DNA of 64,000 bases from Escherichia coli (GCF_003334305.1 NZ_QOWS01000010.1); one strand, 5' to 3'; shown: positions 10,916 through 59,017, numbered from the stretch's first letter. Numbers and translations are program-made. The notes: generated by a model from the sequence alone, not told the origin.

Positions 10916-11007
10916 TTGCCGGATGCGGCGTGAACGCCTTATCCGCCCTACGCGGTTCTGGCACATTTTGCAGGCCTGATAAGACGCGGCAAGCGTCGCA
11001 TCAGGCA
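10916..11007. repeat. BIME: two REP units in inverted orientation
   Basis: TTGCCGGATGCGGCGTGAACGCCTTATCCGCCCTA and AGGCCTGATAAGACGCGGCAAGCGTCGCATCAGGCA in the araJ-mak intergenic region. Confidence 0.8.
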
Positions 11008-12994: not shown

Positions 12995-13033
12995 TGCCGG
13001 ATGCGACGCCTGCCGCGTCTTATCCGGCGTACG
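12995..13033. repeat. REP element downstream of rdgC
   Basis: TGCCGGATGCGACGCCTGCCGCGTCTTATCCGGCGTACG palindromic unit. Confidence 0.75.
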
Positions 13034-39882: not shown

Positions 39883-41022
<1,140 letters not shown>

Positions 41023-41114: not shown

Positions 41115-41948
41115 ATGGAACTCATTGAAAAACATGCCAGCTTTGGCGGCTGGCAAAATGTGTATCGGCATTATTCCCAATCACTGAAATGTGAAATGAA
41201 TGTCGGCGTCTATCTCCCACCAAAAGCCGCGAATGAAAAATTGCCGGTGCTGTACTGGCTTTCGGGCCTGACCTGCAACGAGCAGAATTTCATTACTAAA
41301 TCGGGGATGCAGCGTTACGCGGCTGAACACAACATTATTGTTGTTGCGCCGGACACCAGTCCGCGAGGCAGTCATGTCGCAGATGCCGACCGTTACGATC
41401 TCGGGCAAGGTGCCGGGTTTTACCTGAACGCAACGCAAGCGCCGTGGAATGAACATTACAAAATGTATGACTATATCCGCAACGAGCTGCCGGATTTAGT
41501 GATGCAACATTTTCCGGCAACGACCAGAAAGTCTATCTCTGGTCATTCTATGGGCGGGCTGGGCGCGCTGGTGCTGGCGTTACGTAACCCAGATGAATAT
41601 GTCAGCGTCTCGGCGTTTTCGCCCATTGTCTCCCCATCGCAAGTACCGTGGGGACAGCAAGCCTTTGCCGCATATCTTGGTGAAAATAAAGATGCCTGGT
41701 TGAATTACGATCCGGTGAGTCTTATTTCACAAGGTCAACGCGTTGCGGAAATCATGGTTGATCAGGGGTTGAGTGATGATTTTTACGCGGAACAGCTGCG
41801 GACTCCAAATCTTGAAAAGATCTGCCAGGAGATGAATATCAAGACGTTAATCCGTTATCACGAGGGTTACGACCACAGCTATTATTTTGTCTCCAGTTTT
41901 ATTGGCGAGCATATTGCCTACCACGCCAATAAACTGAATATGCGTTGA
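41115..41948 (+). CDS. frmB: S-formylglutathione hydrolase
   Basis: 277-aa ORF, esterase D fold with GHSMGG nucleophile elbow. Confidence 0.93.
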   Translation: MELIEKHASFGGWQNVYRHYSQSLKCEMNVGVYLPPKAANEKLPVLYWLSGLTCNEQNFITKSGMQRYAAEHNIIVVAPDTSPRGSHVADADRYDLGQGAGFYLNATQAPWNEHYKMYDYIRNELPDLVMQHFPATTRKSISGHSMGGLGALVLALRNPDEYVSVSAFSPIVSPSQVPWGQQAFAAYLGENKDAWLNYDPVSLISQGQRVAEIMVDQGLSDDFYAEQLRTPNLEKICQEMNIKTLIRYHEGYDHSYYFVSSFIGEHIAYHANKLNMR

Positions 41949-41962
41949 TAATAGTGCACGAC

Positions 41963-42050
41963 TGCCGGATGCGGCGTGAACGCCTTATCCGCCTACATTT
42001 CGCCCGCAGGCCGTAGGCATGATAAGACGCGCATAGCGTCGCATCAGGCA
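41963..42050. repeat. BIME (two inverted REP units) between frmB and yaiL
   Basis: TGCCGGATGCGGCGTGAACGCCTTATCCGCCTAC and AGGCCGTAGGCATGATAAGACGCGCATAGCGTCGCATCAGGCA. Confidence 0.8.
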
Positions 42051-42072
42051 TCTGCGCACGACTTATCTATGT

Positions 42073-42612
42073 TTACCACATCAAATCATCAGGCACTTTG
42101 AAGTCGGCATATGGGTCGTCTTCATCCTGCTCTTCGGCGCTGAGCGCGCTGTGCAACACTATACTGCTGGCATCACGCTGAGCTATTTTATCGGCAACGC
42201 TGGCGGGAATAATGGCGTATTCACCTTCGCTATTGTTATCGACCAACAAGCGAGCAATCGCCAGACGACCATTAATCAACTGCGCCTGTGTGAGCTTATC
42301 GACAAAAATCTTCTTAATCAGATTGCCGTCAGTGAAGTTAAAACCAATATCGCCATTGGCAATGGTGATTCGGTTCATTTCAATGAGCTGCTTCACCTGA
42401 GCTTTATATTCTTTCGCCAACGCAGCTTGTTTTTGTTGCTCGCTAAGCTGTTTATCACGCTCAAGCTGTGCCTTTTTATTTTCTTCTACCGCCGCCCGAG
42501 CTTCACGCGCCTGAACGCGCGATTTTTTCGCCGTTCTCTCGACCTTCGCCGCTTTTTTGCTGGTGACTAATCCTGCTTTGAGCAACTGCTCTTGTAAGGT
42601 AAGTTTTGCCAT
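42073..42612 (-). CDS. yaiL: DUF2058 protein YaiL
   Basis: 179 codons from ATG at 42610-42612 (MAKLTLQEQLLKAGLVTSKKAAK...), Lys/Ala-rich, acidic C-terminus. Confidence 0.85.
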   Translation of the reverse strand: MAKLTLQEQLLKAGLVTSKKAAKVERTAKKSRVQAREARAAVEENKKAQLERDKQLSEQQKQAALAKEYKAQVKQLIEMNRITIANGDIGFNFTDGNLIKKIFVDKLTQAQLINGRLAIARLLVDNNSEGEYAIIPASVADKIAQRDASSIVLHSALSAEEQDEDDPYADFKVPDDLMW

Positions 42613-42713
42613 CTTTGTTTCCAAACCCGCTGAATAATTTTTAGCGAGTATACCTGTAAACGCCGTGGGTGTATTGGGGGCAAGTCCCTTTCGCCCCTGC
42701 TTAATAAGGCGCG

Positions 42714-43925
42714 TCAGGCATCGGCACACGGCTGCATTCTTGATCTCCGACTCATCAAAATAAACACCGCCAACCCAGCAACAAGAATACCCGGTGCAGA
42801 AGCGGCCATTACGCCGACCGTGCCAGTGCCTAATGCCAGCATTTTCCCGGCCAGTAACGGACCGCTCATAGCCCCCAGACGCCCTACCGCCACGGCTGTT
42901 CCCACACCTGTTGCGCGGATCTGCGAACTGTAAAACAACGGTGCCAGGGCATACAAAACGCTTTGTCCACCTGTCGCAAACAACCCCGCGACAAATCCCG
43001 CCAGCAACATACCGTTAAATGACGACACCGTTCCAAGCGCCAGCAGCGAAGCTAACATGCCGCTATAAATCAGTAGCGACATGGTTACTGGACGCAGCTT
43101 ATCCATCAATGCGCCCAACATTAACGTCCCGCTTGCCGCCCCCATTTGCAGGGCAAACATCACCCCTGCCGCCTGCGATGGCTGGAATCCTTGCTCCACC
43201 AAAAGTAGCGGTAGCCAGTTGATCAACATATAAACCACCAGCAGAGTGAAGAAATAACACAACCACAGCAGCAGCGTCGCGGTTGCCGTTTCTGGCGCAA
43301 ATAAGGCACGCAGTGGTGGCGCAGCCTGTTTTTCGCCAGCGAAAACCGCTGACTCCGGCAGCCAGCGCATTAATAGCGGCACCAGAATCAACGGCACCAC
43401 ACCACCTACCCAAAACACCGTTTGCCATGCTAAGTTTGCCCCCGCGAAACCCAGTGTCGCCGCCAGCGCCGCGCCAATGGGAACACCGCAATACATCAGG
43501 CTCACTGCCGTCCCACGAAAACGTGGACCCGCGGCTTCAGACGTCAGGGCGATAAGATTCGGCAACGCCGCCCCCAGCCCGACACCGGTCATCAGCCGCG
43601 CAAAGACCAGTGAGGGGAAATCCCAGGCAATCGCCGTTGCCAGTGAGAACAAACCAAACAGCGCAACTGAGCCAATCAAAATACGCTTACGACCATAACG
43701 GTCTGCCAGCATCCCGCCAACCAACGCGCCGGGTAGCAAACCGAGTATTCCGGCGCTAAATATCCAGCCCATTTGCATTTTATCGAGTGCGAAAGCCTGG
43801 GCGATGCCACCCGCCGCAATGCCAGCCGCCTGAAGATCCAGCCCTTCCATCAGAGCGACCAAAAAACAAAGCCCGATGGTCAGCATCAGGCGGGATGAAG
43901 ATGATGAAGGGGTACGAGTCGACAT
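42714..43925 (-). CDS. mhpT: 3-hydroxyphenylpropionate MFS transporter
   Basis: 403 codons from ATG at 43923-43925 (MSTRTPSSSSSRLMLTIGL...). Confidence 0.9.
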   Translation of the reverse strand: MSTRTPSSSSSRLMLTIGLCFLVALMEGLDLQAAGIAAGGIAQAFALDKMQMGWIFSAGILGLLPGALVGGMLADRYGRKRILIGSVALFGLFSLATAIAWDFPSLVFARLMTGVGLGAALPNLIALTSEAAGPRFRGTAVSLMYCGVPIGAALAATLGFAGANLAWQTVFWVGGVVPLILVPLLMRWLPESAVFAGEKQAAPPLRALFAPETATATLLLWLCYFFTLLVVYMLINWLPLLLVEQGFQPSQAAGVMFALQMGAASGTLMLGALMDKLRPVTMSLLIYSGMLASLLALGTVSSFNGMLLAGFVAGLFATGGQSVLYALAPLFYSSQIRATGVGTAVAVGRLGAMSGPLLAGKMLALGTGTVGVMAASAPGILVAGLAVFILMSRRSRMQPCADA

Positions 43926-44018
43926 AAGATGAACCTCATTGCGAGTGCAGGTGAATCGCGACTGATACATTGCCAGCCGCGTAATCAGAACTATTTAATG
44001 ACTGCCTACGGGCGAAAT

Positions 44019-44060
44019 GTAGGCCGGATAAGGCGTTCACGCCGCATCCGGCAGTCGTGC
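44019..44060. repeat. REP element between mhpE and mhpT
   Basis: GTAGGCCGGATAAGGCGTTCACGCCGCATCCGGCAGTCGTGC, reverse complement of the REP at 41955-41996. Confidence 0.8.
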
Positions 44061-44100
44061 TGGGATGGGCATACAAAATGCACGTTCTCGGCAGTCATCA

Positions 44101-45110
44101 TTATTTGTTGTTGCGCAGATCCAGCGCCACGTCAACGATCATATCCTCCTGGCCGCCAACCATCCGGCGTTTGCCCAGCTCAACGAGAATATCCACCGCA
44201 CTTAAGCCATAACGCGCCGCCGCCGTTTCACAGTGACGCAGGAAGCTCGAGTAAACACCAGCGTATCCCAGCGCCAGCGTTTCGCGATCGACTCGTACCG
44301 GTCGATCCTGCAACGGACGCACCAGGTCGTCGGCGGCATCCATTAACGCATAGAGATCGGTCCCATGCTGCCAGCCCAGTTTATCCGCGGCGGCAATAAA
44401 CACTTCCAGCGGTGCGTTACCTGCGCCCGCGCCCATTCCCGCGAGGCTGGCGTCGATTCGGTCGCAGCCCTCTTCCACCGCCGCGATAGAGTTCGCCACG
44501 CCAAGACTCAGGTTATGGTGAGCGTGCATGCCAGTTTGCGTTTCTGGTTTCAGCTCTGCTTTCAGGGCGCGGAAACGGTCACGGATATCGCTCATGTTCA
44601 TCGCACCGCCAGAATCCACCACATAAATACAGGTCGCACCGTAGCCTTCCATCAGCTTTGCCTGCTTTGCGAGATTCTCCGGCGTGGTCATATGGCTCAT
44701 CATCAGAAAACCAACGGTGTCCATTCCGAGCTCGCGGGCATACTGAATATGCTGGGCGGAAACATCAGCTTCGGTACAGTGCGTTGCCACACGAACCACC
44801 CGCGCGCCAGCCTGCCAGGCATTTTTCAGATCGTGAATAGTGCCGATTCCTGGCAGCAACAACGTCGCGATTTTGGCGTGCTTCACCACATCCGCCGCTG
44901 CTTCAATCCATTCAAGGTCGCTATGTGCGCCGAAACCATAGTTAAAGCTGGAACCCTGCAAACCGTCGCCATGGGCCACTTCAATCGAATCCACGCGGGC
45001 ATCGTCCAGTGCTTTGGCAATCTGGCGAACGTTTTCCAGCGAATACTGATGACGAATGGCGTGCATACCGTCACGCAACGTGACGTCCGAGATATAAAGT
45101 TTTTTACCGT

Positions 45111-45114
<4 letters not shown>
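44101..45114 (-). CDS. mhpE: 4-hydroxy-2-oxovalerate aldolase
   Basis: 337-aa ORF recognised as MhpE. Confidence 0.95.
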
Positions 45115-57064: not shown

Positions 57065-57100
57065 TGTCGGATGCGGCGCGAGCGCCTTATCCGACCAACA
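57065..57100. repeat. REP element in lacY-lacA intergenic region
   Basis: TGTCGGATGCGGCGCGAGCGCCTTATCCGACCAACA. Confidence 0.75.
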
Positions 57101-57743: not shown

Positions 57744-57775
57744 TTGCCTGATACGCTGCGCTTATCAGGCCTACA
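57744..57775. repeat. REP element downstream of lacA
   Basis: TTGCCTGATACGCTGCGCTTATCAGGCCTACA followed by a partial second unit (TAGCCGTATCCGGCATG). Confidence 0.7.
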
Positions 57776-57835
57776 AGTTCAGCGATCTACATTAGCCGTA
57801 TCCGGCATGAACAAAGCGCAGAAACAAGAGTCGCA

Positions 57836-59017
57836 TCATGCCTCTTTGACCCACAGCTGCGGAAAACGTGCTGGTGCAAAACGCAGGGTTATAATCATCA
57901 GCCCAACGACGCACAGCGCATGAAATGCCCAGTCCATCAGGTAATTGCCGCTGATACTACGCAGCACGCCAGAAAACCACGGGGCAAGCCCGGCGATGAT
58001 AAAACCGATTCCCTGCATAAACGCCACCAGCTTGCCAGCAATAGCCGGTTGCACAGAGTGATCGAGCGCCAGCAGCAAACAGAGCGGAAACGCGCCGCCC
58101 AGACCTAACCCACACACCATCGCCCACAAGACCGGCAATTGCAGCGGCAACCAGATAAAGCCGCAGAACCCCACCAGTTGTAACACCAGCGCCAGCATTA
58201 ACAGTTTGCGCCGATCCTGATGGCGAGCCATAGCAGGCATCAGCAAAGCTCCTGCGGCTTGCCCAAGCGTCATCAATGCCAGCAAGGAACCGCTGTACTG
58301 CGCGCTGGCACCAATCTCAATATAGAAGGCGGGTAACCAGGCAATCAGGCTGGCGTAACCACCGTTAATCAGACCAAAGTAAACACCCAGCGTCCACGCG
58401 CGAGGAGTGAAAACCACGCGAACCGGAGTGGTTGTTGTCTTGTGGGAAGAGGCGACCTCGCGGGTGCTTTGCCACCACCAGGCAAAGAGCGCAACAACGG
58501 CAGGCAGCGCCCACCAGGCGAGTGTTTGATACCAGGTTTCGCTATGTTGAACTAACCAGGGTGTCAGGGCGGCACCAAGCCCACCGCCGCCCATCAGAGC
58601 CGCGGACCATAGCCCCATCACCAGTGGCGTGCGCTGCTGAAACCGCCGTTTAATCACCGAAGGCATCACCGCCTGGATGATGCCGATCCCCACCCCACCG
58701 AGCAGTGCGCTGCTAAGCAGCAGCGCACTTTGGGGGTAAAGCTCACGCATCAATGCACCGACGGCAATCAGCAACAAACTGATGGCGACGCTGCGACGTT
58801 CGCTGACATGCTGATGAAGCCAGCTTCCGGCCAGCGCCAGCCCGCCCATGGTAACCACCGGCAGAGCGGTCAACAGGGCAGCCACGCTAAAGCTCATTCC
58901 GCTCGCCTGGCGCAATTGCGGTAGCAGTGGCCCGACGGAGGTGAGCAGTGGTCGCATATTAAGACCAATCAGCACCAGAACCAGCAGTATCGTGAACGTC
59001 TTTTGATGGTTGCGCAT
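57836..59017 (-). CDS. cynX: Cyanate MFS transporter CynX; exact start uncertain
   Basis: 393-aa ORF from ATG 5 nt after cynS stop, no obvious SD; polytopic MFS-like protein. Confidence 0.85.
   Translation of the reverse strand: MRNHQKTFTILLVLVLIGLNMRPLLTSVGPLLPQLRQASGMSFSVAALLTALPVVTMGGLALAGSWLHQHVSERRSVAISLLLIAVGALMRELYPQSALLLSSALLGGVGIGIIQAVMPSVIKRRFQQRTPLVMGLWSAALMGGGGLGAALTPWLVQHSETWYQTLAWWALPAVVALFAWWWQSTREVASSHKTTTTPVRVVFTPRAWTLGVYFGLINGGYASLIAWLPAFYIEIGASAQYSGSLLALMTLGQAAGALLMPAMARHQDRRKLLMLALVLQLVGFCGFIWLPLQLPVLWAMVCGLGLGGAFPLCLLLALDHSVQPAIAGKLVAFMQGIGFIIAGLAPWFSGVLRSISGNYLMDWAFHALCVVGLMIITLRFAPARFPQLWVKEA

Follow-up and report, generated by a model that had tools for sequence, protein, structure and literature searches.

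Inverted REP sequences on either side of yaiL and mhpT in Escherichia coli most probably belong to ordinary Y-Z2 (BIME-2-type) arrays

The two inverted sequences that flank yaiL and mhpT in this Escherichia coli strain are, with a probability of about 0.93, independent members of the REP/BIME family, each composed of a Y REP and the linker motifs of Y-Z2 (BIME-2-type) arrays. Known REP/BIME biology fully explains the inverted repeat, and the finding is in that sense already known. Although the neighboring inverted REPs are long enough to recombine, no inversion between them is seen in thousands of E. coli genomes. Within the window (the whole stretch of 64,000 nucleotides that was analyzed), the relevant features are as follows.

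39913-41022, plus strand: frmA (ORF list, annotation)
41115-41948, plus strand: frmB (fghA), the left neighbor of the bracketed segment (ORF list, annotation)
41956-42063, no strand assigned: left BIME, one Y-Z2 unit between frmB and yaiL (sequence; alignment to other REPs)
41963-41996, minus strand: left Y-type REP, GTAG at 41996-41993 (ssDNA hairpin of -10.5 kcal/mol, z = -3.9)
42013-42050, plus strand: left Z2-type REP, GTAG at 42013-42016 (ssDNA hairpin of -9.6 kcal/mol, z = -3.9)
42073-42612, minus strand: yaiL (DUF2058 protein), inside the bracketed segment (ORF list; annotation of a 100%-identical genome and of K-12)
42714-43925, minus strand: mhpT (3-hydroxyphenylpropionate transporter; MFS transporter), inside the bracketed segment (ORF list, annotation)
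44001-44018, no strand assigned: inner flank of the right REP, a match to the left BIME's tail-to-tail linker that stops where a Z2 REP would start
44019-44053, plus strand: right Y-type REP, GTAG at 44019-44022 (ssDNA hairpin of -12.2 kcal/mol, z = -4.3)
44054-44060, no strand assigned: GTCGTGC on the outer side of the right REP, which is the GCACGAC linker in reverse complement
44101-45114, minus strand: mhpE, upstream of the right REP on the minus strand (ORF list, annotation)

Local alignment pairs 41956-42014 with 44001-44060 as inverted copies, with 57 of 60 positions matching and a single 1-nt gap, and the similarity therefore reaches ∼18 nt further inward than the stretch recognized in the initial annotation. 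A repeat search returned a 36-nt block of 100% complementarity (41956-41991 and 44025-44060), its two halves 2,033 nt apart, and a second inverted block (41991-42014 and 44001-44024) at 92%. Between 41956-41996 and the reverse complement of 44019-44060, the sole difference is one extra G on the right (TTATCCG-CCTAC in the left arm, TTATCCGGCCTAC in the right). The earlier claims that near-identical REPs lie here in opposite orientation and that they bracket yaiL and mhpT both hold, since the ORF list and the annotation place both genes between the arms. The sequence quoted for the left copy is also present, but its start had been placed one base too early: the 41-mer occupies 41956-41996 and does not begin at 41955.

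The likeness of the arms is far beyond chance, because the 28-nt REP core occurs four times in the window and in none of 100 shuffles. The pair does not stand out within the REP family. The left copy has a perfect 28-nt core in common with a third Y REP, at 10918 (∼31 nt by reading of the alignment), and an arm-containing query matches 14 places in the median E. coli genome at an E value of ≤1e-5, for which ∼33 matching bases are needed. The stretch itself is 100% identical to E. coli strain H15 and ∼98% identical to K-12.

The E. coli REP family numbers roughly 600 copies. Its y (35 nt) and z2 (37 nt) types consist of GTAG and an imperfect palindrome with an AA/GC internal mismatch (PMC8266576). 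All three REPs at the two loci have GTAG beside the palindrome, as described there, and all three are imperfect palindromes in the ∼29- to 37-nt class that form a stem-loop with the AA/GC internal mismatch; their ssDNA folds each contain a 2x2 internal loop, with z values of -3.9 to -4.3. The left Y REP lacks one stem base of the 35-nt consensus and is thus 34 nt long, and the right Y REP agrees with the published Y sequence, as quoted in PMC11208160, at 34 of 35 positions. Both loci are intergenic in the annotation, and the elements are of high copy number: REP-containing queries find a median of 14 to 38 places per genome, and the 64-kb window holds five or six REP loci, as judged from motif hits. 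With GTAG, the imperfect palindrome, an intergenic position, a high-copy family, and a BIME context all in evidence, the description of the pair in the initial annotation as ordinary REP biology is well founded. In an Rfam search, the best match to naRNA4 (RF02564, a REP-derived RNA) scored 41.6 bits, below the gathering threshold of 59.5; this score reflects only shared REP sequence, and the other Rfam matches are noise.

The organization of BIME-2, with alternating Y and Z2 REPs, short conserved linkers, and tandem repeats, is found here, the left locus amounting to one Y-Z2 unit that is bounded on each side by GCACGACT, a linker motif (41956-41963 and 42056-42063). The right Y REP is the sole REP between mhpT and mhpE in this strain, and the right locus, taken alone, is a BIME remnant: a lone Y REP with linker remnants on both sides.

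The likeness of the arms extends past the REP core on both sides, the shared head-side flank being GCACGAC and the shared tail-side flank ATTTCGCCCG(C/T)AGGC. Neither flank occurs at the other three REP loci aligned from the window, a pattern that recent gene conversion or duplication between these two neighboring loci would produce. Such an origin of the extra likeness is unlikely, because in K-12 GCACGAC is present at every Z2-Y junction of both arrays, as expected of an array linker. Wholesale conversion is further disfavored by the internal tail-to-tail linkers, which in the right array of K-12 (AAATTCCCGCGCC...) are unlike those of the left. The tail-side motif, ATTTCGCCCG(C/T)AGGC, matches the tail-to-tail linker of the left array.

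Membership in variable arrays accounts for the arms. In K-12 MG1655, the frmB-yaiL spacer is 223 nt long and reads Y-Z2-Y-Z2, compared to 124 nt and 2 REPs in the window, and the mhpE-mhpT spacer is 577 nt long with nine alternating REPs, compared to 175 nt and 1 REP. Array size was surveyed with REP-free flank queries in 58 genomes sampled across each ranking. The mhpT-mhpE flanks spanned ∼661, 760, 863, 962, and 1063 nt in 32, 7, 3, 3, and 12 sampled genomes, respectively, and the frmB-yaiL flanks spanned ∼710, 810, and 911 nt in 33, 24, and 1. In the 58th row sampled for mhpT-mhpE, mhpT contains an IS1 element. By comparison with the arrays of K-12 and of the window, we infer that the mhpT-mhpE spans correspond to 1, 3, 5, 7, and 9 REPs and the frmB-yaiL spans to 2, 4, and 6 REPs, each step in array size representing one Y-Z2 unit of ∼100 nt. 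BIME polymorphism is named in the title of Bachellier et al. 1997, as cited in PMC1525189. The arms are most probably alike because they belong to one subfamily whose arrays grow and shrink by ∼100-nt units, rather than because they form a functional pair. The two arrays happen to mirror each other in orientation, and in this strain each is close to its minimum size, with 2 REPs at the left locus and 1 at the right; what is left is a single inverted repeat around mhpT-yaiL, 36 nt of it perfect and ∼60 nt near-perfect.

The initial annotation also proposed that inverted copies this similar are potential substrates for inversion and that the orientation of the segment be compared across E. coli genomes. 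Synthetic inversion junctions were therefore built, J1 joining frmB, the arm, and mhpT and J2 joining yaiL, the arm, and mhpE, and were searched in all 5,426 complete E. coli genomes in RefSeq, a match being any place that covered at least 80% of the query. Neither J1 nor J2 occurred in any of the 5,426 genomes, at the level of the isolate consensus that complete assemblies represent and at which rare subclonal inversions would be missed. The native order covered at least 80% of the query in 4,918 of them. The same type of query detects real junctions, having found those of IS621 insertions in 98 and 59 genomes. REP-to-REP deletion, which would join frmB to mhpE with the segment gone, was likewise found in 0/5,426 genomes. 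Judged by the condition given in the initial annotation, orientation polymorphism is thereby refuted as far as fixed differences go. The more general proposal of a potential inversion substrate survives in principle, on the strength of one 2.4-kb inversion obtained in the laboratory (isolate PJH1479), but none of the 5,426 complete genomes is inverted.

That laboratory isolate comes from a study of Lac amplification on the K-12 plasmid F'128 (Lin et al. 2011; PMC3161906). A screen of 540 starved isolates yielded only two inversions, PJH1479 being one, and the authors put this inversion down to template switching at secondary structures (PMC3161906). The PJH1479 junction sequences are TAGCGTCGCATCAGGCATCTGCGCACGACT and ATTTGTAGG, and the legend to Fig. 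4 of that study places REP blocks between mhpE and mhpT and between yaiL and yafJ (PMC3161906). The mhpE-mhpT REP cluster was a junction hotspot, present in 20% of the listed rearrangement junctions (PMC3161906). We mapped both PJH1479 junctions to the mhpE-mhpT and yaiL-side REP clusters. The 30-mer has three copies in the K-12 mhpE-mhpT array, all on one strand, and a single copy on the opposite strand in the yaiL-side BIME; in the window it occurs only at 42034-42063. On the TG1 F' plasmid, the 9-mer is found in the BIME between yafJ and yaiL, and the mhpE-mhpT array contains its complement. In laboratory F' plasmids, homology to the window starts exactly at the outer edge of the left BIME, where yafJ abuts yaiL; in the TG1 F' plasmid, yafJ is joined to yaiL through the left BIME. 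This join agrees with an origin of F'128 by REP-REP recombination, which is stated in the title of Kofoid et al. 2003 (reference 41 of PMC3161906).

The pair of REPs could also be read as a working invertible switch, in which the mhpT-yaiL segment flips at a useful frequency by RecA, RAYT, or template switching, so that mhpT, which lies downstream of the mhp operon, comes to lie downstream of frmRAB, a formaldehyde-inducible operon. RecA recombination has a minimum of roughly 23 to 27 bp, which the 36 nt of perfect inverted identity exceeds; both arms fall between genes, all of which would survive an inversion intact, and PJH1479 demonstrates that one such inversion can be recovered. A length range of 29 to 32 bp is discussed for RecA recombination in PMC3161906. 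Several observations nevertheless make a switch very improbable. First, an invertible switch should present both orientations among isolates, and one orientation alone was found (0/5,426 inverted), although the same method recovers the IS621 junctions. Second, no dedicated recombinase gene was found in or beside the segment, which consists of yaiL and mhpT with frmB and mhpE as neighbors, and the window contains no rayT. Third, the laboratory event was as rare as noted above and was attributed to template switching. A weaker form of this reading, in which the 36-nt inverted Y REPs of strains like this one allow a low-level, reversible mhpT-yaiL flip that is hidden in consensus assemblies, would place mhpT under frmRAB read-through and create cell-to-cell differences in expression; we consider it barely credible. 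Under the preferred reading, in which the arms are independent REP/BIME members, inversion of the 2-kb segment is possible, having occurred once in the laboratory, but would be too rare or too costly to have become fixed in any sequenced genome.

A two-gene segment of 2 kb between inverted terminal repeats superficially resembles a composite element, and the REPs might accordingly be taken to delimit a cassette, mobile or acquired horizontally, whose cargo is mhpT and yaiL. The probability of this is negligible. There is no empty site, as the frmB and mhpE flanks are joined in 0/5,426 genomes, and the segment has no target-site duplication at its borders. The median number of copies of the flanks is one per genome, and laboratory F' plasmids are the only place where additional ones occur. 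The unit that varies is also a different one: ∼502 genomes lack the mhpT-mhpE junction yet retain yaiL. EC444, the only such genome inspected, lacks the whole mhp cluster, and its boundary is near 42677, at neither arm.

What does happen at these sites in nature is a change in unit number and the insertion of IS621, not inversion. IS621, a bridge-RNA-guided element of the IS110 family, has a natural target of 11 nt, ATCAGGCCTAC, with a CT core (PMC11208160). The left Z2 REP reads ATCATGCCTAC on the minus strand at 42013-42023, one mismatch from that target. Junction queries found IS621 at the left (frmB-yaiL) site, in the Z2 REP, in 98/5,426 genomes and in the mhpT-mhpE array in 59/5,426. All three broken-flank genomes that were inspected contain a 1,279-bp IS621 within a Z2 REP; the element enters at the CT of ATCAGGC-CT-AC, or of ATCATGC-CT-AC in strain AF40, i.e., at the CT within ATCAGGCCTAC or ATCATGCCTAC. 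In AF40, IS621 occupies exactly the position that corresponds to 42013-42023, in a left-BIME allele that is the same as that of the window save one SNP, and 42013-42023 is therefore a proven natural IS621 target. The right Y REP carries a target-like variant, ATCCGGCCTAC, at 44019-44029; the IS621 occupancy seen concerns Z2 REPs. No IS621 was found in the window by tblastn of the transposase.

Flanks that were present but unjoined were seen in 125 genomes on the left and 94 on the right, and IS621 explains most of these. Setting aside IS621 in the tested orientation, ∼27 genomes with a broken junction remain at the left site and ∼35 at the right, and these too gave no match to an inversion junction. 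Copies of IS621 at the two sites are oppositely oriented and would therefore form a 1.3-kb inverted repeat; that copies in both arrays, necessarily inverted, provide the flip substrate is a barely credible variant of the low-level flip. A synthetic junction query for IS621-mediated inversion matched 0/5,426 complete E. coli genomes. The sites are prone to recombination, the natural outcomes observed being unit-number change and the arrival of IS621 at ATCAGGC-CT-AC of a Z2 REP.

The initial annotation further raised the prospect of REP-associated transposase activity, which nothing found here supports: tblastn detected no rayT homologue in the window, and in K-12 rayT is ∼130 kb away. Nor do the flagged arms constitute a REPIN, because they are 2 kb (2,033 nt) apart with two genes between them. 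A REPIN consists of two inverted REPs with a spacer of tens of nucleotides and moves as a single unit; the flagged pair lacks this layout, and the left Y-Z2 doublet fits it.

Roles for the two loci may be proposed by analogy with the family. As RNA, the elements could form stable 3' hairpins that protect upstream mRNA and damp read-through, the protected transcripts probably being those of frmRAB and yaiL on the left and mhpABCDFE on the right. The left BIME is predicted to fold strongly as RNA on either strand (-58.9 and -63.6 kcal/mol), and so is the mhpE-mhpT spacer on the minus strand (-43.5 kcal/mol), all with z near -5. The genes frmB and yaiL converge on the left BIME. Translation of an upstream gene is reportedly lowered by a REP that lies within 15 nt of its stop codon (work by Liang, Rudd and Deutscher in 2015); the frmB stop codon (TGA, 41946-41948) is 15 nt before the first stem base of the left Y REP, and the mhpE stop codon is 48 nt from the right REP stem. 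A scan for consensus promoters and terminators returned nothing at either REP and counts no higher than in shuffled sequence, and the lack of a consensus terminator is expected because REPs have no T-run. Stabilization of upstream mRNA by REP hairpins is credited to Newbury et al. 1987 in PMC7509114. As DNA, the loci may act as gyrase sites of the BIME-2 type, DNA gyrase binding and cleavage of BIME-2 being credited to Espeli and Boccard 1997 in PMC1525189.

Both REP clusters have also been involved in F'128 rearrangements and in Lac-amplification junctions, and this record therefore makes them a convenient and well-documented locus for studying REP-mediated instability or native IS621 targeting. 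The F'128 events of Lin et al. took place at the same two REP clusters, the yaiL-side BIME being that of the yafJ-yaiL join on the F' plasmid. They differ from the present case in two respects. (i) They used a 30-bp Z2-linker homology, which the right locus of this strain, with its single Y REP, does not have. (ii) They arose in K-12, on a plasmid, under starvation and lac selection, whereas here the segment is chromosomal and in its native order.

The insertion of IS621 into REPs is shared with both loci, whose Z2 REPs carry the target ATCAGGCCTAC or its one-mismatch variant; the flagged Y REPs, in contrast, are not the elements that IS621 enters. With the REPIN/RAYT (TnpA-REP) system, the left Y-Z2 doublet shares the layout of a REP plus an inverted REP, which RAYTs recognize, and GTAG is intact, whereas the flagged pair encloses two genes and has no rayT nearby. 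The closest correspondence is with the Y and Z2 REPs of E. coli in BIME-2-type arrays: the elements described here have the same GTAG, the same imperfect palindrome (34 to 38 nt), the same AA/GC mismatch, and the same intergenic position, and their arrays have the alternating orientation and strain-to-strain variation in unit number of Y-Z2 arrays elsewhere. They depart from typical Y-Z2 arrays in that the right locus is down to a single REP and the left Y REP is one stem base short, and in nothing else of substance.

The mhpE-mhpT spacer holds one REP in the window (44001-44060), compared with nine alternating Y and Z2 REPs in K-12 (L001:2383-2959), and the size classes of this spacer among the sampled genomes are consistent with 1, 3, 5, 7, and 9 REPs. 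In the larger arrays, a "hypothetical protein" is occasionally annotated by PGAP. At the frmB-yaiL BIME, on the other side of yaiL and mhpT, there is one Y-Z2 unit in the window (41956-42063) and two in K-12 (L001:4813-5035), and the span length indicates that at least one genome, TUM18530, apparently has three. Further REP/BIME loci of the window are as follows, the first being another Y-Z2 BIME with a perfect Y core of 28 nt.

10918-11006, REP/BIME locus (Y-Z2)
12996-13032, REP/BIME locus
57066-57099, REP/BIME locus
57761-57841, REP/BIME locus

The frmB-yaiL and mhpT-mhpE BIMEs are also targets of IS621, a bridge-RNA element of the IS110 family, which occupies the CT core of a Z2 REP in 98 (frmB-yaiL) and 59 (mhpT-mhpE) of the 5,426 complete genomes, in opposite orientations at the two sites.

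42013-42023, minus strand, IS621 target in the window (Z2 REP, CT core)
L004:6362-7640, IS621 copy
L005:6361-7639, IS621 copy
L006:6400-7678, IS621 copy

Separately, strain E7476 (hit H51, NZ_CP035817) has an annotated IS1A inside the 5′ part of mhpT, adjoining the REP.

The stem of the Y REP begins 15 nt past the stop codon of frmB (41946-41964); if the whole BIME were to fold as a single hairpin, the stem would start only ∼5 to 8 nt past the stop. At such proximity, the effect that REPs are reported to have on translation termination could apply.

The mhpT-mhpE junction is absent from ∼502 of the 5,426 genomes. EC444 (L002:5060-5220) lacks the entire mhp cluster; next to yaiL there is a gene fragment for a GlxA-family regulator, with lacI after it, and homology to the window stops at ∼42677, shortly before a REP-like stretch of the yaiL-mhpT spacer. 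This degenerate stretch, CGCGTCAGGCATCGGCACACGGCT (42690-42733), shares 83% identity with the Z2 head and linker at 42040-42063 and overlaps the last codons and stop codon of mhpT.

The nucleoid-associated RNA naRNA4 (RF02564) has its source in a REP cluster; its two Rfam matches in the window, of 41.6 and 31.8 bits, fall below the gathering score of 59.5.

44022-44070, plus strand, sub-threshold naRNA4 match
41954-41994, minus strand, sub-threshold naRNA4 match

In laboratory F′ (pro lac) plasmids, a hybrid BIME fuses yafJ to yaiL.

L007:2848-3121 (TG1 F′ plasmid), hybrid yafJ-yaiL BIME, counterpart of window 41956-42063

Because the fusion runs through this hybrid BIME, the frmB-yaiL REP cluster is the junction that closes the stretch of chromosome on the F′ plasmid.
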